In this document: one piece after another, positions 2,928-31,951 of the stretch
Layout of the letters: every line of letters begins with the position of its first letter
How positions within the stretch are numbered: the stretch's first letter is position 1
NCBI RefSeq assembly: GCF_030542965.1
Contig: NZ_JAUAOA010000002.1
Location: forward strand, 349,744 to 381,743
Reading direction: 5' to 3'
Length of the DNA: 32,000 nucleotides
From: Azotosporobacter soli
Lineage (GTDB): Bacteria; Bacillota; Negativicutes; SG130
Position numbers and translations under genes: made by a program
Notes under the pieces: model-generated
Database searches by the model: none
What the model saw: the letters and a program-made list of their open reading frames with translations, nothing else
What the model was told of the DNA's origin: nothing

Positions 2928-3644
2928 CTACTCGTCCTTCGGTATCACGACGAGCTTGCTGCGACCTTGCGCATCCATCGCCTTGTCATCCATGTAGATC
3001 GTCAGGCTGTTGCCGGTCAGCGTGTTGCCGTCCTGTATCGCTCTGGCATTGCCGGTCAATACGGCGCGGCCTTCGCCTTTTTTACCGTAATAGACCGCAT
3101 GGTCGGAAACGGCATCGAGTTTGCGCGTCTCGCTGACGACATGGACGTTGCCGTCAATGACGACACGTTCTTCTTGTGTAAACGCTTCCAACCGATTGCC
3201 GGTAATCACGCCGTCAGCGGTGTCCATTCGCGCCCAGCCTTCGACCAGCGCATAGCCTTTGTCAGCATAGTAATCAATTTTTGGTCCGGCAAGCCGGTTT
3301 TCACCTTTCGTCAAAATCGGCTGCCCTGCCGCAATCAGGTGATTATTATCATAGCCGCGTACTTCTTCCGCAATTAACGTGGCATCTTCTTTGACAACTT
3401 TAACGCCGCCATGAATGTACGTTTCCTGCGTTTTGACGTTATATTCGGCCTGCGCGCCGGTCATCATCGATTTTCCTTGCACCAGCTTGACATTGCCAGT
3501 CGCGATCATGACGCCGCGCACCGAGTCGTATTCAATCGTATCGGCAACCAAGTCAATCGGCTCATTGCCCGCTGCCGCTGCGCCGCCCGATAAGCCAATC
3601 AGCAAACAAACCGCAAGTAGCGCGCTTTTCCACTGTCTTCTCAT
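2928..3644 (-). CDS. lptA: Periplasmic LPS transport protein, LptA/OstA-N family
   Basis: Signal peptide MRRQWKSALLAVCLLIGLSGGAAAAG, followed by OstA-like beta-jellyroll sequence (ADTIEYDSVRGVMIATGNVKLVQG..., repeated GN-V motifs). The start overlaps the lptC stop (ATGA at 3644-3641). At 238 aa it is longer than the E. coli LptA as I recall it. Confidence 0.8.
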   Translation of the reverse strand: MRRQWKSALLAVCLLIGLSGGAAAAGNEPIDLVADTIEYDSVRGVMIATGNVKLVQGKSMMTGAQAEYNVKTQETYIHGGVKVVKEDATLIAEEVRGYDNNHLIAAGQPILTKGENRLAGPKIDYYADKGYALVEGWARMDTADGVITGNRLEAFTQEERVVIDGNVHVVSETRKLDAVSDHAVYYGKKGEGRAVLTGNARAIQDGNTLTGNSLTIYMDDKAMDAQGRSKLVVIPKDE

Positions 3645-6695: not shown

Positions 6696-6793
6696 TTTCA
6701 ACACGAAGGCGCGAAAAATTGAAAGACACGAAGAAATTTAGATTTTAAAATTCCTTCCGCTCTTTCTTTTTTCTTCCTTTCTTCGTGTTAAAA
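6696..6793. repeat. About 100-nt imperfect hairpin element, copy A (kdsA-kdsD gap)
   Basis: AACACGAAG (6700-6708) pairs with CTTCGTGTT (6781-6789). Internal purine-rich left arm segments GAAAAA and GAAAGA pair with TTTTTC and TCTTTC on the right arm. It begins about 11 nt after the kdsA TAG stop. Confidence 0.7.
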
Positions 6794-6804
6794 CATCCCC
6801 ATCC

Positions 6805-7629: not shown

Positions 7630-7672
7630 TGCGACACTTCCTTTTTCCTGTAATTTACTAAGTCAAAGCGGA

Positions 7673-7772
7673 TTCAACACGAAGAATCGAAAAACGAAAG
7701 AGGAAAAGATTTTATTCGTATAAAAAAGAACTTCTTCCTTTCTTTATTTTCTCTTCCCTTCTTCGTGTTGAA
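7673..7772. repeat. About 100-nt imperfect hairpin element, copy B (kdsB-kdsA gap)
   Basis: TTCAACACGAAG (7673-7684) is a perfect 12-bp inverted repeat with CTTCGTGTTGAA (7761-7772). The purine-rich left arm and pyrimidine-rich right arm match copy A. It begins about 12 nt after the kdsB TAG stop. Confidence 0.75.
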
Positions 7773-7784
7773 AATCCCGTCATG

Positions 7785-18078: not shown

Positions 18079-18702
18079 CTACCAATTCAAAGTAACGCCG
18101 CCGTACCAGCGGTCATGCCCATAAGCAATTTGACTTTGCCAGCCATTTTGCCAGGCGGCTCGCAGACCGTACTGAAGGCCATGACCGTCAAAATCCGCAA
18201 CCGCGCGGAGCGTCGGCTGAGAGTTTGACGTCTTGCCTTTACTAAAGTGCGGCGGGTTAAGCACTTTTTCGATGCCGCCAAAGACGCCGTCAAAACGGCC
18301 GCTGCCCACGCCAAGGTGCAGGCGATAACCGCCTGGGAGAAATTTGCTGGCAACGCCATAGAGCGATCCGCCGCTTTCGGCGCCGATCGCCAGCCCCGGC
18401 GTCAAGACGGTTTCCGGCTGCAACGATAATTTCACACTGCTTTCTTCCTGCGTTGCCTGTCCCTGCGCAAAACGCCAGCCATGCGCCATTTCCCAGCCGC
18501 CGGGCAAGCCGACTGCCACGCTCTGTCTGCGCCAGCCATCACCCTGCCAAATGCCCAGATCGCCTTTCCCACTTGCCAGGACATCGGCCGAAGGCGATTC
18601 CAAGAGGCCGGTATCACCGTGCAGCGTCGGAGCGGTTTCGCCGCTCGCCGACCAAAAGCAGCAAGCGATCATTGCGCCGCATAGAATTGCTTTATACTTC
18701 AT
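18079..18702 (-). CDS. Small secreted beta-rich outer-membrane-type protein with YjbH-like motifs (function unknown)
   Basis: ATG at 18702 has AGGAG 5 nt upstream (the ORF track begins at 18723). Signal peptide is MKYKAILCGAMIACCFWSASG. GDTGLLESPSADVL and PGLAIGAESGGSLYGVASKF resemble the GGVGLLQTPTA and PQVAVGARDIGG...LVASK segments I recall from E. coli YjbH. The C-terminus ...WYGGVTLNW ends in an aromatic residue, as in OMP beta-signals. Confidence 0.5.
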   Translation of the reverse strand: MKYKAILCGAMIACCFWSASGETAPTLHGDTGLLESPSADVLASGKGDLGIWQGDGWRRQSVAVGLPGGWEMAHGWRFAQGQATQEESSVKLSLQPETVLTPGLAIGAESGGSLYGVASKFLPGGYRLHLGVGSGRFDGVFGGIEKVLNPPHFSKGKTSNSQPTLRAVADFDGHGLQYGLRAAWQNGWQSQIAYGHDRWYGGVTLNW

Positions 18703-18837
18703 CGTTGCTCCTTTATAAAACACTATTTTCGTTGGTCTTGCTAAAATTTAAGCGGAGTTCGTTAAAAAAATTTCAGCTGTCAAACCAAGCCTCTTCTCCC
18801 GCGCAGCTGACGCTTTTTTAGCAGACTCTTTTTATTA

Positions 18838-21308: not shown

Positions 21309-21782
21309 TTATTTACCTGTGATCTTTTTCAGCACTTCTTCGGTGATATCTTGGCCGCCGTAAATGACATTGCTTTTATCAACAACCACAGTCAGGCCCT
21401 TCGCATCGGAAACGGCTTTGATCGCGCCATCGATCTTGTCATATACCGGCGCTACGAGTTCCTGGTGTTTTGCTTGCAACCGCTGTTGAATCTGTTGATA
21501 GTATTCTTGTTTTTCTTTGTCGTTCATCGCAGCGCTTTTTGCTTCAAAATCTTTTTTCGCTTGCTCAACTTCGGCTTTCATTGCTTCGTCTGCTTTAGCC
21601 ATATCCGGATGCTGCTGCACCAGCATTTGGTAGTTGACTACGCCAACGCTGGAATTACTACCGGCTGCTGCTGCATAACCTGTTCCGCTTTGCGAGAGGG
21701 CCAAGCCGACAATGCCTAAAACAAAAAACATCGCTACCGCTAACGACACCATTTTAACTTGCTTCTTATCAATTTTCATCAT
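21309..21782 (-). CDS. OmpH/Skp-family periplasmic chaperone
   Basis: ATG at 21782 has GAAGGAG 8 nt upstream (the ORF track extends to 21884 across the upstream stop). Signal peptide is MMKIDKKQVKMVSLAVAMFFVLGIVGLALSQSG. The rest follows the OmpH pattern (VGVVNYQMLVQQHPDMAKADEAMKAEVEQAKKDF ... KGLTVVVDKSNVIYGGQDITEEVLKKI). Confidence 0.8.
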   Translation of the reverse strand: MMKIDKKQVKMVSLAVAMFFVLGIVGLALSQSGTGYAAAAGSNSSVGVVNYQMLVQQHPDMAKADEAMKAEVEQAKKDFEAKSAAMNDKEKQEYYQQIQQRLQAKHQELVAPVYDKIDGAIKAVSDAKGLTVVVDKSNVIYGGQDITEEVLKKITGK

Positions 21783-21822
21783 GTTGAAAACTCCTTCTTT
21801 CCCTAACCAAATTTCTTTTTCC

Positions 21823-21851
21823 ATTATAGCAGGCGTGTTTTGGCAATTCAA
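21823..21851 (-). promoter_or_regulatory. Sigma-70-type promoter TTGAAT-17-TGcTATAAT upstream of the OmpH/Skp-lpxD block
   Basis: On the minus strand, TTGAAT is at 21851-21846, the 17-nt spacer follows, and TATAAT is at 21828-21823 preceded by TGc (extended -10). It starts 6 nt after the stop of the 423-aa gene and lies about 40 nt upstream of the skp ATG. Confidence 0.55.
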
Positions 21852-21856
21852 GGCTT

Positions 21857-23128
21857 TTATAAGACGCCAATCAGCCTGAGCCAATTTTCCTGCTTCGTGA
21901 ACACATATTCTACACTCAAAAATTCATGCAGCCGGTAGCGCAATCCCATTTCATAATCGCTGTTCTTAGGGTAGCGCTCTAAACGCAGTTGCCAACTATC
22001 GCTCAGATTTTGCCGCAGCCACCATTTCCCCTGCCTGTCGGAAAGCAGATATTGAAAACCAATATCCGTTTCCCGGCCAAAGTGATGGCTGACGCCGCCG
22101 CTGAATTTCCAAGTGAACGTAGTCGGATAAAAATCAACTTCGCCAAACAATTCCTCTTGTTTGTTCATCATTCGTCCGGCATGAAGACGCGCCGATGTGT
22201 TGTTCTCTTTGCGTCCCATATCGAGGTAGCCTTCAGCATTAATCTTGTAGCCGTCCGTTTTTGCCGTCAAATAAACATCGACCAGACTGCCTGGCTGAAG
22301 TTCGATCTGATACTGCAGATTATAACGCTTTGTCAGCGGCGCCTGCTCCGCTTTTTTCAACAGTCGCTGGACAAAATAATCGCGGTGCCGCGCAACCCAG
22401 CCCACCGGCAAGTTGCGCCAACTCGTAATTTCCTGCGCCAGTACCGGTTTCAAATCGAGCAGCAGCAAATTCGGCAGATTGGGCGAACGGATACTGATGC
22501 GGCTATCCTGCACCAATTGACCATTGGGAACCAACGTTATTTTGACGACGCTATGCGTTCCTGACGCAAGTTCTACTCCCAGCGTATATTCCGGCAATTG
22601 CAGCGCCGCACGATCCCTCAGCTCCGTCTTCGCAACTCCGATCGCCCAGTCTTCGCTGTCGACAGGCAGACCGACAAACAGATTACGCATGCCTTCCGTC
22701 AGTCCCGCCAAATCTTTCTCCAGCAAAGGTTGCAGTTCTTGCGGCAGGTTGCCGTAATCGAATTGCACATCAACTTGTTCGACGAGATCGCCCCACGGTG
22801 TGACCTGCATTCTGACCTGCATCTGACGTCCAGGTACAAGCTCAACCCGCTCGACTTCATAACCGAAGAGGACGCGCGTAAAGACTTCCTGCAAGACACG
22901 TTCATACTGTCCTTGCCGTTGCCTGATTTCTTCAACATTCTTGCCACTCAGCATTTGTCGCGTCACGGTAGCCAAGCTGTTTTCCAGCCGCGCTTGCAGC
23001 GCCGTCGCCAACGGATTGGCAGATGTCACCGCCACTTGAATATTCTCAACTCTCTCAATGCTTTGTCCCTGCACCGTTGGACAGCCAAACATTAGCAAGA
23101 GCAAGAGCACCATCAGCCGTTTAGTCAC
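21857..23128 (-). CDS. Uncharacterised secreted protein: three 90-residue alpha/beta repeat modules plus a beta-rich C-terminal domain
   Basis: GTG start has GGAGG 7 nt upstream. Signal sequence is MTKRLMVLLLLLMFGCPTVQG (possible lipobox FGC). The motif (V/I)EL-x-(P/S)G recurs at residues 95-100, 185-190 and 275-280. The last 130 aa or so contain alternating-pattern strands (FTWKFSGGVSHHF, DIGFQYLLS, WQLRLERY, YEMGLRYRL, LSVEYVF). Confidence 0.7.
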   Translation of the reverse strand: MTKRLMVLLLLLMFGCPTVQGQSIERVENIQVAVTSANPLATALQARLENSLATVTRQMLSGKNVEEIRQRQGQYERVLQEVFTRVLFGYEVERVELVPGRQMQVRMQVTPWGDLVEQVDVQFDYGNLPQELQPLLEKDLAGLTEGMRNLFVGLPVDSEDWAIGVAKTELRDRAALQLPEYTLGVELASGTHSVVKITLVPNGQLVQDSRISIRSPNLPNLLLLDLKPVLAQEITSWRNLPVGWVARHRDYFVQRLLKKAEQAPLTKRYNLQYQIELQPGSLVDVYLTAKTDGYKINAEGYLDMGRKENNTSARLHAGRMMNKQEELFGEVDFYPTTFTWKFSGGVSHHFGRETDIGFQYLLSDRQGKWWLRQNLSDSWQLRLERYPKNSDYEMGLRYRLHEFLSVEYVFTKQENWLRLIGVL

Positions 23129-23154
23129 GCTGCCGCCTCCATCTGCGGCCAGTC

Positions 23155-23180
23155 AAAAGCCAGGCCGTGGCCTGGCTTTT
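23155..23180 (-). terminator. Terminator-like hairpin after bamA
   Basis: The minus strand reads AAAAGCCAGGCC-ac-GGCCTGGCTTTT followed by G. It lies 12 nt after the bamA stop. The next gene's SD and GTG follow about 20 nt later. Confidence 0.5.
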
Positions 23181-23191
23181 CAACCGTTCGC

Positions 23192-25006
23192 CTAAAATTG
23201 TCCGCCAAAGCCAAATGTCGCCCGACCGCCCTTGCTGCCCCAGCCATAGTCAAGCTTGATCGGCCCCAGCATCGTATTCATCCGGATACCGCAGCCGATT
23301 GCGGTCTTCAGATCCGTCAACTGATAGCCTTCACCAGTCCATGCATTGCCGGCCTCGGCAAAGACGACGCCATGAATTTTCTTCATCAGCGGCATCCGGT
23401 ATTCGATTGTCGCGGCAAACATCTTGTTGCCTTTGAATTCATCATCCTTATAGGCGCGCAGACTCTCGCCGCCAAGCGCAAAGCGCTGGCTGTCCGGCAT
23501 CGATCCGGTCGCGTAGCCGAGCATGCCGCGTACCGCAATGATGTGGTCGCTGCCGACATCATAATATTTGCGGCCTTCTAAGCTGAACTTATTGAAATTA
23601 AAGTTGCCGCCCAAACCCTTGCCGGCGATCTCGACATTCGTCGTCAACATCGAACCGGTCGTCGCATTGAACACGTTGTCACGCGTATCAAAGACGCGGC
23701 TCAAAATCACGCTGCGCGTGGTGCCGAAGTTATCCTTCAAATATTGCTGATGCGCCGCCGTGCCATCGAGATAATTCTCACCCGACACATACTTGTTGTA
23801 GATGTCCTTGCGGCTTTTCAGCGTCACATAATAGCGGGTGTATTCGTTGACCGGACGTCCCAGCGTGATGTCCCAGCCCTTACGCTGCCGATCATAGGTG
23901 GAGCGGAAGTCGCCATTGTCGTTGTAATCGTCATAACGGTTCGTCATGTCATAAATACTGAAACTGAGTGATGTTTCCTTCTTGTCCATCCACGGATGCG
24001 TGTAACTGAATTCGTAATTGGCGCCGCTATTTGAATAACCGCCGATTTCCTTGTGGATCTTGACGCTGTCGCCGGTACCGCGGAAATTCTTGTCACCAAG
24101 CTCAATGATGCCGACCATGCCGTCAGAACTGCTGTAACCGGCGCCGATCGTGAACGTGCCTGTCTTTTGTTCGACGACCGTCGTCTCCATAACAACCGCA
24201 TTCGGCTCGCGTCCCGGAATCAGCTTCATATTCACATCTTCAAAGAAGCCGAGATTGTAGATTTTCTCCATGCTACGCTTGGCTTCTTTTGAATTGAACG
24301 GTTTGCCGACTTTATTCTTTATCTCGCGGGTAATGACGTGCTTCTTCGTTTTCTCATTGCCCTTAACCGTCAATTCTTCCAGCAGTCCTTCATTGATCGT
24401 GACGGTCAAGGTACCGTCTTTCGCCATATTGACGTCGCTGATCTTCGCCATGATATAGCCAGCGCTGCGATACACCTCTTCGATCGCCTTCGCATTTCCC
24501 GCCCACGTCTTCGAATTCAGCACCGCTCCGACCGGAACGGTGACTTGGCTTTCCAAGCGCGACGTCGTCACGACCGTGTTTCCTTTGATGACGACTTGTT
24601 TCAAAACAGGGTTTTCCATTACCCGGTAGACAACCTGGATTCCTTCCGGCACCTCTTTAAAATCGGCGGTCACGTCAAAAAAGTAACCCAAGTCATAAAT
24701 CGACTGCATATCCTGCTTGACGCGATCGGCAGTCAGTGCTTCGCCGACCTTCAATCGTATCGCATGCATGATCGTGTCGCTCGATACCGACATATTGCCT
24801 TCGACCGTCACGGACGTCATCTTTTTCCCGGTGATATTGATTGGTGCCGCCTGCACCGTGCTCTCCGTCGTAGGGGTCGCTACCGCTTCCGCCGCTCCCT
24901 GTTCCGGCGTCGCCGCATAACCGACCTGTCCTATCGTGCCCAGCGCCACCGCCATCCCCATTGCCAAATAAGCGGGCCGCCACCGATATTGTTTCCTCTT
25001 TTTCAT
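23192..25006 (-). CDS. bamA: Outer membrane protein assembly factor BamA (Omp85 family) with three POTRA domains
   Basis: A signal peptide and low-complexity linker precede three POTRA-like units, each opening with VTVEGN / VVIKGN / LTVKGN. The Omp85 barrel runs from TFTIGAGYSSSDG to a C-terminal ...GRATFGFGGQF ending in Phe. GAGGAGG SD is present. Confidence 0.92.
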   Translation of the reverse strand: MKKRKQYRWRPAYLAMGMAVALGTIGQVGYAATPEQGAAEAVATPTTESTVQAAPINITGKKMTSVTVEGNMSVSSDTIMHAIRLKVGEALTADRVKQDMQSIYDLGYFFDVTADFKEVPEGIQVVYRVMENPVLKQVVIKGNTVVTTSRLESQVTVPVGAVLNSKTWAGNAKAIEEVYRSAGYIMAKISDVNMAKDGTLTVTINEGLLEELTVKGNEKTKKHVITREIKNKVGKPFNSKEAKRSMEKIYNLGFFEDVNMKLIPGREPNAVVMETTVVEQKTGTFTIGAGYSSSDGMVGIIELGDKNFRGTGDSVKIHKEIGGYSNSGANYEFSYTHPWMDKKETSLSFSIYDMTNRYDDYNDNGDFRSTYDRQRKGWDITLGRPVNEYTRYYVTLKSRKDIYNKYVSGENYLDGTAAHQQYLKDNFGTTRSVILSRVFDTRDNVFNATTGSMLTTNVEIAGKGLGGNFNFNKFSLEGRKYYDVGSDHIIAVRGMLGYATGSMPDSQRFALGGESLRAYKDDEFKGNKMFAATIEYRMPLMKKIHGVVFAEAGNAWTGEGYQLTDLKTAIGCGIRMNTMLGPIKLDYGWGSKGGRATFGFGGQF

Positions 25007-25031: not shown

Positions 25032-25550
25032 CTATTCTTTCGTGTTCTTTGTCTGACTGCGCAGCGACTTTCCAGCCGAGCGAACTAATTTTTGCATTTC
25101 ATCGGCAGAAACGACGTCTCTCGTCTCCATTGCCTCCGCCGGCGCTTCCGGCTTCACGCTCACGGCCGGCAGCGGCTGTACTGCGCTGACGACCGCTTTC
25201 GACTCTGCCTGCACCACCGTCGTCAAGACAGGGTCCGGCAGCGGCACAGCCGTCGCGCTCTCTGCTTGAGCAGCCGCCGGAGCGGGCAAGACGGCATGCG
25301 TTTCTTTGCCGTGTTCCGCGAAGGACCACCAGCCATAGCCGCCAATAATCAACAGCGTAATCAGCGCCGCAACGCGTCCGCCCCAGCCGGGCAACGCTCT
25401 TCCTGCCCTCCGGCCACTGACACGCTTCAGTTCCGCCTCCGCCAGCATCAGGTGCATTTTCGCTCTGACACCGTTTTTTTGATCCCATTCATCTTCTGCC
25501 CGGTGCAGCCAACGCTGGGCCGCCTGCAGGCCTTGTTTGAAATCCGCCAT
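25032..25550 (-). CDS. Single-pass membrane protein with anti-sigma-factor-like topology (function unknown)
   Basis: 172 aa. It has a helical N-domain (MADFKQGLQAAQRWLHRAEDEWDQKNGVRAKMHLMLAEAELKR), one TM (VAALITLLIIGGYGWWSF) and an Ala/Pro/Val-rich C-terminal tail. It is the next gene after the sigma factor, and its stop is 25 nt from the bamA ATG. Confidence 0.6.
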   Translation of the reverse strand: MADFKQGLQAAQRWLHRAEDEWDQKNGVRAKMHLMLAEAELKRVSGRRAGRALPGWGGRVAALITLLIIGGYGWWSFAEHGKETHAVLPAPAAAQAESATAVPLPDPVLTTVVQAESKAVVSAVQPLPAVSVKPEAPAEAMETRDVVSADEMQKLVRSAGKSLRSQTKNTKE

Positions 25551-25678
25551 ATCTTCACCCCGATGTTATTACATTCAGTCATGGCAGTTCTTTTTTCGCA
25601 GCGGATGGTCAACGATTATTCGCTACAAACGCTTTATTCCTCTCAAATCCTTTAAAATTCAAGCTTACTTTACTTCTT

Positions 25679-26311
25679 TCACCAATGTTGCATCAGACGC
25701 GACAGCATGCCGCGTACTCTGCGCACGCCCTGCTTTTGCAGGCGGTAGACATGCGACAGGCTGACTTCGAGCAAATCCGCCATTTCCTGCGGCATGCGAT
25801 CTTCGAGATAGACGCCGCTCAGCACCGCCTGCTCTTTGGCCGGTAGGCGTGCCACCGCTTCTTGCAGTTGAAGCGCGAGAAAATTCGCTTCCGCCTGTAC
25901 CGCAATCGCAGGCTCCGCATCAACCAGACGATCCAACAGATTATAGCCCTGCATTTGCAGTTCATCCGCCGAAATGACTTGCTCCTGATCTTCATCCTTA
26001 AGGAAATCGATCATGCGACCGCGGATGCGATGAATCGCATACAGGCTGAAGGCAACACCGCGCAGATGGTTATAGCCGTCGACCGCTTCCAGTAAGCCAA
26101 GCGTCCCCTCCTGCACCGTATCAAACCAGACTTCTTCCGCCAAGTTCCATTTGCTGAGCGCCTTAAAAACCAGCGGCTGATAACGTTCAACGATCTCTGC
26201 GCGCGCAGCCTGGTCACCCTCTTCCTTATAACGGTGCCAAAGAAGGCGTTCTTCTTCAAATTCAAGCAGCTTGATGCTATTCAATTCTTTCAGATACTGA
26301 CTTCGCTTCAT
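25679..26311 (-). CDS. Sigma-70 family RNA polymerase sigma factor, group 3 FliA/SigD/WhiG-like
   Basis: Region 2 reads YQPLVFKALSKW...VQEGTLGLLEAVDGYNHLRGVAFSLYAIHRIRGRMIDFLKDED. The region 4 HTH reads LPAKEQAVLSGVYLEDRMPQEMADLLEVSLSHVYRLQKQGVRRVRGML. ATG at 26311 lies 14 nt after the tamB stop and has a GGGAG SD (the ORF-track TTG at 26329 is rejected). Confidence 0.85.
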   Translation of the reverse strand: MKRSQYLKELNSIKLLEFEEERLLWHRYKEEGDQAARAEIVERYQPLVFKALSKWNLAEEVWFDTVQEGTLGLLEAVDGYNHLRGVAFSLYAIHRIRGRMIDFLKDEDQEQVISADELQMQGYNLLDRLVDAEPAIAVQAEANFLALQLQEAVARLPAKEQAVLSGVYLEDRMPQEMADLLEVSLSHVYRLQKQGVRRVRGMLSRLMQHW

Positions 26312-30477: not shown

Positions 30478-30575
30478 CGGTTTCCTCCTGAAGGGTATCA
30501 GGTATCATATTCTACGCGAAGGAACCCTTTCCTGCCATAGAGCTCGAATGTTCATAAAGCCGTAAGAATTGCAGG

Positions 30576-30612
30576 ATAAAAGAAAAAGCCGCGGATTTCT
30601 CCGCAGCTTTTC
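30576..30612 (-). terminator. Rho-independent terminator after tolC
   Basis: The minus strand reads AAAGCTGCGGA-gaaa-TCCGCGGCTTT (one G.U pair) followed by TTCTTTTAT. It lies 10 nt after the tolC stop. Confidence 0.6.
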
Positions 30613-30621
30613 ACCGATTGC

Positions 30622-31911
30622 TTAGTTTACCGCAATGCCCATCGCTTTTTCCAATTTGGCACGGCTCGTGTTGTAATCATAAAGCGCCTGGTAGTAGTTC
30701 GTCTTCGCCTGCGTCAGTGCAACCTGTGCATCAATGACGTCGATATTCGTTCCGACGCCGGCCATATAGCGGACTTGCGCGATCTTAAAGTCTTCTTCCG
30801 CTTTAGTAACCGCTACTTTACTGGTATCGATCCGCTTTTCCGCTTCGCGCAGACCGAGAAAGTTCTGACGCACTTCAAGCTGTACCGAATCTTTTGTCTG
30901 TTGCTCCAGCTGCAACGTCTTGTCAAACGCCTGCTGCGCTTTGCCGATATTCGCATTCGTGACGCCGGAATCAAAGGCGTTCCAATTCAACGTTGCCCCG
31001 ACAGACCAATTGCTATTTCCACTGCCCGGAAAATCCTTGTTATTCCAATCCTGCGTGCCAAAGACGGCGATTGTCGGCAGATGTCCGCCCTCCGCTGCCC
31101 TTTTGTTTTCCTTCGCGGCCTCTACGCCAAAAGCGGCCTGGATCACTTCCGGACGGTTCTTCAGAGAATAGTCGATGCAGGTATCGAGCGTCTTCTCATA
31201 AGGAAGATACTGCAATTCCTCTTTGACCGACAGTTCCGTGCCAAGCGGCAACCCAATCACGTTGTTCAGCGTGGAAATCGACAGGTCATAGGTGTTCTGC
31301 GCTTTGATCAGACTTTGCTGCGCATTGGCCAATTCCACTTCCGAGCGCAGCACATCAGACTTGGCAACCGTTCCAACTCCGTACTGCGCCTGAACATTCT
31401 TTAGATGAGCGGTCAGCTGATCGACCGATTCCTGCGCGACTTGCAACAGATTGCGCGCCTGCAAAATTCCGTAGTAGCCGTTTGTCGCATCCAGTTTGAT
31501 CTGCTGCATCGCCTTGGCCACGCCAAAATCCGCCGAACTATAGTTGGCCCGTGCAGCGCCGACTAAACCCTCTTTTTGTCCAAACGTATAGACGTTCCAA
31601 CCGAGTGAAAGCTTATTGTCAAATTTATTGGTCACATTGCCGCTCGTCGTAAGACTGTTGCCATGCGCCGCCGTATGCGTATAGCCGACCGAAGGCAGGA
31701 GCGCCCCTTCCGCGATCTTAATGCCGTATTGCGCCGACGCTTTGTCCTGAACAGCTATCTTAACCGTCGGATTATTCTGCAGCGCGAGTCGCACGCTGTC
31801 TTCGAGCGTCAATTCCGTAGGCGCCGCCTGAACCAGACTGGTCTGCCCAGCCAATAGAATGCCGACCAGCAACATATTCCAGCCACGCCGCCATTTTCGT
31901 TGTATTGTCAT
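30622..31911 (-). CDS. tolC: TolC-family outer membrane channel protein
   Basis: Signal peptide ...WNMLLVGILLAGQTSLVQA. It has two structural repeats of OEP-type helices and strands (LTLEDSVRLALQNNP..., ...QALYDYNTSRAKLEKAMG). ATG at 31911 has AAGGAGG 7 nt upstream (the ORF-track TTG at 31914 is rejected). Confidence 0.88.
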   Translation of the reverse strand: MTIQRKWRRGWNMLLVGILLAGQTSLVQAAPTELTLEDSVRLALQNNPTVKIAVQDKASAQYGIKIAEGALLPSVGYTHTAAHGNSLTTSGNVTNKFDNKLSLGWNVYTFGQKEGLVGAARANYSSADFGVAKAMQQIKLDATNGYYGILQARNLLQVAQESVDQLTAHLKNVQAQYGVGTVAKSDVLRSEVELANAQQSLIKAQNTYDLSISTLNNVIGLPLGTELSVKEELQYLPYEKTLDTCIDYSLKNRPEVIQAAFGVEAAKENKRAAEGGHLPTIAVFGTQDWNNKDFPGSGNSNWSVGATLNWNAFDSGVTNANIGKAQQAFDKTLQLEQQTKDSVQLEVRQNFLGLREAEKRIDTSKVAVTKAEEDFKIAQVRYMAGVGTNIDVIDAQVALTQAKTNYYQALYDYNTSRAKLEKAMGIAVN

Positions 31912-31951
31912 CAATAAACCTCCTTGACTAAATAGTCATTTTACTTTTCCC

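Follow-up and report, generated by a model that had tools for sequence, protein, structure and literature searches.

Why should a gene for a sigma-70-family transcription factor lie between tamB and bamA? This question is raised by a 32,000-nucleotide stretch of DNA from Azotosporobacter soli (hereafter called the window), in which genes for a TolC-like protein, TamB, the sigma factor, a 172-residue membrane protein, BamA and a 423-residue protein form a block that lies entirely on the minus strand. The window corresponds to the outer-membrane and lipopolysaccharide (LPS) cluster of diderm Firmicutes that was described previously (PMC5007114). Conserved across two phyla in its place between tamB and bamA, as described below, the sigma factor is the obvious candidate regulator of outer-membrane biogenesis in diderm Firmicutes and other Terrabacteria. 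We put at about even the chance that this factor and the small membrane protein, assigned below to the SonB family, constitute a lineage-specific regulatory module in the BAM/TAM operon of diderm Terrabacteria, and such a module would provide a concrete, testable entry point to the control of outer-membrane biogenesis.

Both small genes are real, given that the sigma factor has 2018 database relatives and that the 172-residue protein is 100% identical to an A. soli hypothetical protein. The sigma ATG (position 26311) is located 14 nt 3′ of the tamB stop codon with GGGAGAAG upstream, 128 nt separate sigma from sonB, and the sonB stop codon lies 25 nt from the bamA ATG (position 25006), which is preceded by GAGGAGG. 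These distances and the open reading frame (ORF) coordinates had been reported in a preliminary description of the locus, and all were correct on re-measurement.

A genome scan using one genome per species revealed 287 genomes carrying a relative of the sigma factor. Synteny was counted in the best 80 loci, which derive from Sporomusa, Pelosinus, Propionispora, Dendrosporobacter, Lucifera, Selenomonas, Mitsuokella, Pectinatus, Propionispira and others. As far as the contigs extend, the order tolC-tamB-sigma-sonB-bamA-sonA-skp...lpxD is present in all 80 loci, with tolC found upstream of tamB in 71 and a SonA-like gene found downstream of bamA in 75. The tight coupling of sigma to tamB noted in the preliminary description is a general feature of these loci, with a median distance of about 21 nt between the two genes and no more than 75 nt in 72 cases. 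A similarly short gap (median of about 22 nt) separates sonB from bamA. Moreover, an ORF of roughly 130–240 codons (mostly 170–236) lies between sigma and bamA wherever both were located. A tblastn search with the small protein gave no match in five loci, three of which (L061, L068 and L071) were inspected by alignment. The sigma orthologs of the 80 loci exhibit 47–57% identity, and the median identity across loci is 52% for sigma, 32% for TamB and 31% for SonB, which places the sigma factor among the best conserved proteins of the block.

The same gene order is observed in the cluster of Allisonella histaminiformans, a true member of the Veillonellaceae, and in further Bacillota contigs. In addition, a contig whose sigma factor belongs to the 90% cluster of a ‘Synergistaceae bacterium’ protein carries, in order, sigma, a 206-codon ORF, bamA, a 434-codon ORF, lpxD, lpxC, fabZ and lpxA, and three relatives of this contig (L207, L209 and L210) keep the arrangement. 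The putative extension to Synergistaceae rests on this one named cluster and the three further contigs. At such distant loci tamB can be missing, in which case sigma directly precedes sonB; the gap between sigma and the small gene is only 38–51 nt, and a SonA-like protein is detected by BLASTP with E values from 1e-6 to 1e-72. Thus the pair is syntenic next to bamA in relatives of A. soli, and its range is far wider than the preliminary description had asked for.

Three relatives at or beyond the edge of the sigma family (L208, L211 and L212) are not located beside bamA. One of these (L208:8001-8777) is a 258-residue sigma relative with 37% identity (161 bits) and an N-terminal extension, which is annotated as RpoS and comes from an unclassified ‘[bacterium]’ metagenome-assembled genome.

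Two further species inform the distribution. TamB and BamA of Veillonella parvula are encoded by Vpar_0526 and Vpar_0527, with Skp directly after (PMC5491611), and this species is reported to be without SonA and SonB (PMC13018214). Judging by the consecutive locus tags, the sigma, sonB and sonA genes appear to be jointly absent from the tamB-bamA locus of V. parvula. The distribution bears on how the ancestral BAM/TAM cluster evolved as well as on why this genetic model lost the module. Mitsuokella multacida is non-motile and non-spore-forming (PMC13518439), and yet carries the module (L037 and L075), so that a role confined to flagella or to sporulation is excluded.

Architecture and family placement of the sigma factor

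The assignment of the 210-residue product as a sigma factor, made in the preliminary description, agrees with Pfam matches to Sigma70_r2 (E 9e-12) and Sigma70_r4 (E 3e-7), whereas region 1.2 is detected only below threshold. The region 2 and region 4 peptides quoted in that description are present. Also upheld is the resemblance to FliA and WhiG in these two regions. Specifically, WhiG, SigF and FliA are the best NCBIfam subfamily matches, with SigB/F/G also among the best, and the first extracytoplasmic function (ECF) model, SigW, reaches only E 1e-10. A profile built from 28 orthologs finds WhiG (6pfv) and Escherichia coli FliA (6pmi) as the closest solved structures (both with E values of about 1e-23). 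Similarly, a Foldseek search with the predicted structure returns Bacillus subtilis SigD, sigma32 and WhiG at the top, all members of groups 1–3, and no ECF factor near the top. The region 2.4 motif ..YAxxRIRGxMxDxL.. is present and reads YAIHRIRGRMIDFLK in the window. This segment aligns to FliA and WhiG, and the columns of R95, G98 and R99 are invariant across the 28 orthologs.

However, the term ‘sigma-28-type’ in the preliminary description does not hold as a statement of family membership. The protein passes a single NCBIfam model, the superfamily-level TIGR02937, and misses the curated cut-offs of the subfamily models by a wide margin (WhiG, 83.4 versus 343 bits; SigF, 79 versus 261; FliA, 72.9 versus 201; FliA_WhiG, 67.1 versus 189.6). 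The FliA/WhiG family models scored were TIGR02479 (FliA_WhiG, cut-off 189.6), NF005413 and NF004935. Furthermore, the sigma3 domain that completes the three-domain architecture of FliA and WhiG is absent. These two proteins align to the ortholog profile in two separate stretches that leave their sigma3 unmatched, and only about 40 residues lie between region 2 (ending near residue 108) and region 4 (starting near residue 147). An AlphaFold2 (AF2) model (pLDDT 79) places sigma2 at residues 3–106 and sigma4 at residues 134–208, with a low-confidence linker at 121–139.

In size and architecture (210 residues, sigma2 and sigma4 only) the protein is therefore like an ECF factor, but its nearest NCBIfam, PDB and Foldseek matches belong to groups 1–3. 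The earlier statement that it does not follow the ECF type holds as a claim on closeness, whereas the scores far below the FliA cut-offs do not fit a sole FliA ortholog, as that description had also contemplated. Taken together, the sequence matches and the predicted structure make this protein look like a group-3-like factor (FliA/WhiG/SigF-like) that has lost sigma3. Such a two-domain protein would blur the boundary between group 3 and ECF factors and, if the assignment is true, a group-3-like sigma factor without sigma3 would be a documented sigma architecture.

The sigma family was delimited by searching its profile against 1.84 billion representatives, which yielded 66 clusters at E ≤ 1e-30. 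Matches that cover the full length in a single stretch are 183–221 residues long and range from 344 down to about 100 bits. Two-stretch matches to proteins of 250–290 residues (FliA/SigF type) start at about 105–110 bits and overlap the lowest-scoring members of the family. These counts and this split in length indicate a small, discrete family. Database names for the orthologs vary (sigma-70 family, FliA, sigma-E and sporulation sigma), and the JGI label is ‘sporulation-specific sigma factor’.

The FliA/FlgM and WhiG/RsiG systems are thus the closest in regions 2 and 4, where similarity is highest, and they have the region 2.4 motif in common with the sigma factor of the window. They differ in that the latter is without sigma3, scores below their cut-offs and has no flagellar or developmental gene context. 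In addition, FlgM and RsiG are soluble, whereas the candidate partner at the tamB-bamA locus is a membrane protein.

SonB as a candidate partner of the sigma factor

A study of Acetonema longum (Nat Commun 2026, PMC13018214) describes SonB, a protein with a transmembrane helix encoded immediately 5′ of bamA, and SonA, encoded immediately 3′. The same study reports sonB-bamA-sonA-skp1 synteny across Negativicutes and co-expression at germination, labels SonB as a putative lipoprotein of the outer membrane and considers it a factor in outer-membrane biogenesis. In the window and the 80 loci, a gene for a protein with a transmembrane helix likewise lies directly 5′ of bamA in the order sonB-bamA-sonA-skp. 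By position and description (A. longum SonB is F7NM24), the 172-residue protein is SonB and the 423-residue protein is SonA; gene order and the absence from V. parvula agree as well. The partner has therefore been described before: SonB, SonA and their synteny were already published in 2026. The sigma factor itself is apparently undescribed, as had been proposed, because the upstream gene is not mentioned in the main text of PMC13018214 and a literature search found no paper discussing it.

The window protein departs from the published label in one respect. It carries no signal peptide, lipobox or cysteine, and thus cannot be a lipoprotein. Its AF2 model consists of two helices (residues 2–25 and 29–47), a transmembrane helix (57–84), a disordered Pro/Ala-rich segment (85–148) and a terminal helix (149–169). 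Six K/R residues are located on the N side of the transmembrane helix, which by the positive-inside rule makes the helical hairpin cytoplasmic. The prediction for SonB of the window is accordingly an N-in bitopic protein of the inner membrane, in place of the lipoprotein proposed for A. longum. A single pass with the N terminus inside, a helical cytoplasmic N-terminal domain and a gene beside that of a sigma factor are the features of membrane anti-sigma factors. The preliminary description had recognized this topology, and had correctly noted that the HxxxCxxC zinc motif is missing; there is no recognizable anti-sigma domain either.

Family alignments reveal two hairpin motifs, ..RxWLxRAE.. 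and ..GELxLMLAQAEL.., followed by a basic stretch, and a C-terminal motif ..EMQKLxRxAGKSLRGQ. The intervening Pro/Ala-rich segment is variable and disordered, and the hairpin spans about 45 residues. The conserved C-terminal helix (..EMQKLVRxAGKSLRGQ) was overlooked in the earlier reading. Proteins encoded at the same position in Synergistaceae-type and other distant loci have the same plan as SonB and share homology with it across phyla in the N-terminal hairpin (hhalign probability 96%, E 1.4e-9, 44 columns). Indeed, conservation within SonB peaks in the hairpin, which is predicted to be cytoplasmic. That the cytoplasmic part is best conserved, and that the adjacent gene encodes a conserved cytoplasmic protein, is the main, albeit indirect, argument for a partnership between the sigma factor and SonB.

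A Pfam search with 22 SonB family members gives no consistent match at E ≤ 1, and the PDB yields no relative at E < 0.1. One ortholog, P0430 from Sporomusa silvacetica, bears the UniRef name ‘Anti-sigma-W factor RsiW’, whereas other named records are given as hypothetical or putative membrane proteins. The RsiW name looks like an automated guess and not evidence, as no RsiW or zf-HC2 similarity is found in Pfam.

A peptidase has also come to light near these genes. In A. longum, the S55-domain protein F7NM31 from the same cluster is one of only two proteins that co-elute with BamA (PMC13018214). At one distant locus (L205:1924-3633), a gene for a peptidase of the S55 (SpoIVB-like) family lies directly 5′ of tamB-sigma. 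That an S55 peptidase serves as a site-1 protease for SonB is pure speculation.

Promoter-like elements and competing explanations

A strong terminator 3′ of tolC separates this gene from the tamB-sigma unit. Between this terminator and tamB, the window carries the motif GCAGGAAAGGGTTCCTTCGCGTAGAATAT (about 30533-30510), which matches a family consensus of tAaAGGAAG-N13-YGT(C/A)GAA. The motif occurs in 43 of 81 loci at 34–112 nt upstream of tamB, specifically in Sporomusaceae-type loci and Propionispira, and in each of the 43 it is the top site found with a position weight matrix (PWM), far above the second site. As judged from sequence, the element is promoter-like and of a non-housekeeping type. 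Sigma-28 factors recognize TAAA-N15-GCCGATAT, and the consensus for B. subtilis sigma-H is AGGAwww-N11-12-RnnGAAT. The −10 part of the motif, GTCGAAAT, agrees at six of eight positions with the sigma-28 −10 consensus, and thus also resembles the −10 element of the FliA and WhiG systems. The geometry of the full motif fits both sigma-28 and sigma-H sites. Immediately before GAA, GT was set by the search pattern and C is present in 33 of the 43 sites, and the base after GAA varies (A17, C4, G12, T10). A conserved GTC followed by a variable base after GAA is atypical for sigma-H. From these features and the FliA/WhiG-like region 2.4, we infer that the local sigma factor may read the motif, which would constitute autoregulation.

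A spacer of 120–320 nt separates sigma from sonB in Negativicutes loci. The preliminary description treated the two genes as a pair; they are indeed adjacent in the loci, but they are not simply coupled, as this spacer contains promoter-like elements. In both Sporomusaceae and Selenomonadaceae, a conserved GGAyTATA box lies about 45 nt 5′ of sonB, and GAT(A/T)AT-like boxes are found in the short spacers of distant loci. Sporomusaceae spacers additionally carry TTCCCA-N17-TATAAT and a conserved TATAAT directly upstream of the ribosome-binding site. Candidate −35 elements (TGACCA or GGTCAA) have spacings that fit no single −35/−10 model. The spacer of the window is divergent, with no sigma70-type match and no terminator in our scans. 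Comparison of these sequences suggests that an internal promoter for sonB-bamA is probably present in the spacer.

Most Sporomusaceae (L005, L008, L010, L023 and others) also possess a perfect palindrome, CCAGAATCTGG, located 60–75 nt upstream of sonB, whereas neither the window nor Selenomonadaceae carry it. Its symmetry suggests a putative site for a dimeric DNA-binding regulator of the sonB-bamA promoter in Sporomusaceae. Three other candidate elements in the spacer were considered. A general terminator between sigma and sonB was rejected, since one is found in only about 8–10 of 75 loci and none in the window; read-through from tamB-sigma into sonB-bamA is consequently possible in most cases. 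A sigma-H-like sequence in the window, AGGAATA-N-GCGAAT, was attributed to chance because it is conserved neither in a 94%-identical relative nor in other loci. A structured RNA in the spacer finds only a weak RNAalifold signal (−6.6) and no Rfam match.

These observations can be assembled into a model of the module, which in its widest form would be an ancient sigma/anti-sigma circuit physically coupled to BamA; to this form we give distinctly less than an even chance. The circuit would mediate an outer-membrane homeostasis response of diderm Firmicutes and Synergistota by driving tamB, bamA, sonA and skp, and would thus be a functional counterpart of sigma-E/RseA derived from a group-3 sigma factor that lost sigma3, with SonB as a periplasm-spanning sensor. 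In the lineage-specific module, put above at about an even chance, the cytoplasmic hairpin of SonB would hold the sigma factor in the manner of a short class II anti-sigma domain, and the disordered periplasmic linker and basic C-terminal helix would reach the outer membrane or the BAM/TAM machinery and report on its state. Released sigma factor would raise transcription of tamB-sigma from the AGGAAG-N13-YGTCGAA promoter and, because most loci are without a terminator after sigma, read-through would also raise sonB-bamA-sonA-skp. More SonB would then restore inhibition and close a negative feedback loop, and a separate promoter in the sigma-sonB spacer with a housekeeping-like −10 box would keep bamA at a basal level. 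The central element, that SonB acts as an anti-sigma factor for the adjacent sigma factor, we consider plausible on the present sequence comparisons, although short of an even chance.

Several observations weigh against such a circuit. SonB matches no Pfam, NCBIfam or PDB family, anti-sigma domains included, and its hairpin is short, at about 45 residues. Sigma/anti-sigma pairs are not usually split by a spacer with promoter-like elements, such as the one between sigma and sonB in Negativicutes. Selenomonas and Mitsuokella, in which tamB lies 30–130 nt after tolC, lack the tamB motif, as do distant loci, although the DNA-binding regions of the sigma factor are conserved there. Since its geometry also fits sigma-H, the motif may be read by another sigma factor. 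Furthermore, when the window and all loci were scanned with the PWM, no additional intergenic copy came up, and the second-best window site (near 239) is in coding sequence; without a second copy in 32 kb of outer-membrane and LPS genes, no regulon member is identified. Metagenome contigs scanned for AAAGGAAG-N11-12-YGTCGAAAT gave at least 120 stretches, mostly inside ORFs, and none with tamB, tolC or the sigma gene among the matches listed, and so were uninformative as to the regulon. Finally, the L208 sigma relative adjoins TonB and glycosyltransferase genes and has no bamA or tamB context, and thus the sigma family also exists uncoupled from BamA.

The explanation that competes most directly keeps the sigma factor as a regulator of the outer-membrane cluster and makes SonB a structural or assembly factor, namely a tether or accessory of BamA, SonA or TamB that is anchored in the inner membrane and spans the periplasm. 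The tight coupling of sonB to bamA (median gap of about 22 nt), the promoter region that sets it apart from sigma in Negativicutes and the lack of an anti-sigma family match all speak for such a role. In addition, SonB is assigned to outer-membrane biogenesis and is co-expressed with BamA and SonA (PMC13018214), and there is a weak compositional match to GspB, a bitopic secretin-assembly factor (E 2.7e-4, far below the cut-off). However, the part of SonB that is best conserved is the cytoplasmic hairpin and not the periplasmic portion. The sigma gene is adjacent to SonB where checked, and no SonB-like gene without sigma was seen, although L208 is without a SonB neighbour. Moreover, BamA co-immunoprecipitation in A. 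longum recovered no stable partner (PMC13018214), SonB included, which leaves a fixed place of SonB in the BAM complex unsupported. We regard a structural SonB as somewhat unlikely, and likewise its corollary that the sigma factor is controlled in another manner, such as through transcription alone, a soluble partner or proteolysis.

Two other explanations concern the sigma factor itself. It could be a developmental factor under Spo0H (sigma-H) whose task is to rebuild the outer membrane during sporulation or germination, as opposed to a stress-responsive envelope factor. The fit of the tamB-sigma motif to the B. subtilis sigma-H geometry, the JGI label on the orthologs and the increase of BamA, SonA and SonB at germination in A. 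longum (PMC13018214) point in this direction. This role is nevertheless improbable: the module is kept in non-sporulating Selenomonas, Mitsuokella, Allisonella and Synergistaceae-type contigs, the presence of SonA and SonB is uncorrelated with sporulation (PMC13018214), and the base after GAA is not dominated by T whereas GTC is strongly conserved. Far less credible still is that the gene encodes the FliA/SigD protein (flagellar sigma-28) of the organism and is located here by chance. WhiG and FliA are the best named relatives among hidden Markov models and PDB entries, some ortholog records are named FliA and the RIRGxMxDxL motif is present, but the protein attains 67 of 189.6 bits with TIGR02479 and 73 of 201 with the FliA subfamily model. 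It also has no sigma3 domain, is kept in non-motile M. multacida and belongs to a family separate from the FliA-like matches of 250–290 residues, and neither the 32-kb window nor the 20-kb loci contain flagellar genes.

The proposed sigma-SonB circuit can be compared with characterized systems. In Proteobacteria, RpoE (sigma-E) and RseA likewise combine an alternative sigma factor with a single-pass inner-membrane protein whose N terminus is cytoplasmic, as is predicted for SonB. Sigma-E controls its own expression and activates bamA, skp and lpt genes, the very genes among which the sigma gene described here is physically embedded. However, RpoE is an ECF (group 4) factor whereas the present protein is nearest to group 3, and RseA has a defined anti-sigma domain whereas SonB offers a hairpin without family match. 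Moreover, rpoE and rseA are translationally coupled, in contrast to the 128-nt spacer found here. Class II short anti-sigma domains such as CnrY and NepR consist of a short two-helix cytoplasmic segment, which in CnrY is followed by a transmembrane helix, and they partner with ECF sigma factors or PhyR. SonB resembles them in plan only, with no known sequence or profile similarity. Likewise, the Dma proteins embody the idea, also proposed for SonB, of an anti-sigma factor that crosses the periplasm as far as the outer membrane and reports its state, but they carry an outer-membrane beta-barrel, in place of which SonB offers no more than a disordered linker and a terminal helix.

As a kind of system, sigma/anti-sigma control of the envelope is already known. 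What would be novel is a group-3-derived two-domain sigma factor, a putative anti-sigma factor of no known family and the embedding of both in BAM/TAM genes across two phyla. To our knowledge, no envelope-stress pair of the RpoE/RseA type has been described for diderm Firmicutes and other Terrabacteria.

Layout of the window and further observations

The features that define the block are collected in Table 1. Downstream of the SonA-like gene, the window contains two skp/ompH genes on either side of a weakly OmpH-like ORF of 311 codons, followed by lpxD. The remaining genes of the window have lipid A, Kdo and Lpt functions.

Table 1 Coordinates of the tolC-to-skp block in the A. soli window
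Feature	Position	Strand	Basis or remark
TolC-like outer-membrane efflux protein gene	30622..31914	-	First gene of the conserved block; Pfam OEP, E 5e-70
Intrinsic terminator 3′ of tolC	30583..30612	-	13-bp stem followed by a T-run; terminator scan
Promoter-like motif AGGAAAG-N11-GTAGAA 5′ of tamB	30510..30533	-	Candidate promoter of the tamB-sigma unit
tamB, 1383 aa	26326..30477	-	Pfam TamB, E 1e-52
Sigma-70-family factor, 210 aa, sigma1.2 (weak)-sigma2-linker-sigma4	25679..26311	-	Pfam r2 and r4, AF2
sigma-sonB intergenic region, 128 nt	25551..25678	-	Internal sonB-bamA promoter probably here
SonB-family bitopic membrane protein, 172 aa	25032..25550	-	AF2, alignments; candidate membrane-anchored partner or anti-sigma factor
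bamA, 604 aa	23192..25006	-	Pfam Omp85 and three POTRA domains
SonA-like protein, 423 aa	21857..23128	-	No Pfam match; 3′ of bamA
skp/ompH chaperone gene	21309..21884	-	End of the core block; Pfam OmpH, E 5e-19

Two further sequences flank genes of the block. A perfect sigma70-type promoter sequence, TTGACA-17-TATAAT, is found at 31980-31952 upstream of tolC. It is followed (about 31915-31935) by the palindrome ATGACTAnnTAGTCA, which is conserved in Sporomusaceae loci (L004, L008, L015, L023 and L080) and which, from its sequence, looks like a putative operator of a TetR-type repressor. The spacer between bamA and sonA (23129-23191) contains a GC-rich hairpin, AAAAGCCAGGCCACGGCCTGGCTTTT, that was left unscored by the terminator scan; its sequence makes it a possible attenuator between the two genes.

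A 214-codon ORF (18079-18723) situated between lpxD and a lipid A acyltransferase gene encodes a product with no Pfam match and a signal-peptide-like N terminus. Its Gly/aromatic-rich composition and ..GVTLNW end indicate that it may be a small outer-membrane beta-barrel.

Two types of repeats were also observed. A perfect 7-nt tandem repeat of 19.1 copies at 2742-2875 (TGGCTCG on the plus strand, CGAGCCA on the gene strand) fills most of a 200-nt spacer between an lptA-like gene (2928-3644) and an lptB-like ABC ATPase gene (1993-2727). A tract of this length and perfection suggests that the spacer is prone to slippage and possibly phase-variable. An imperfect palindromic element of about 100 nt, ACACGAAGAA...TTCTTCGTGT with a purine-rich centre, is present in two copies (6705-6804 and 7630-7784) in the spacers on either side of a kdsA-like gene, and these copies resemble repetitive extragenic palindromic (REP) elements or transcription attenuators.

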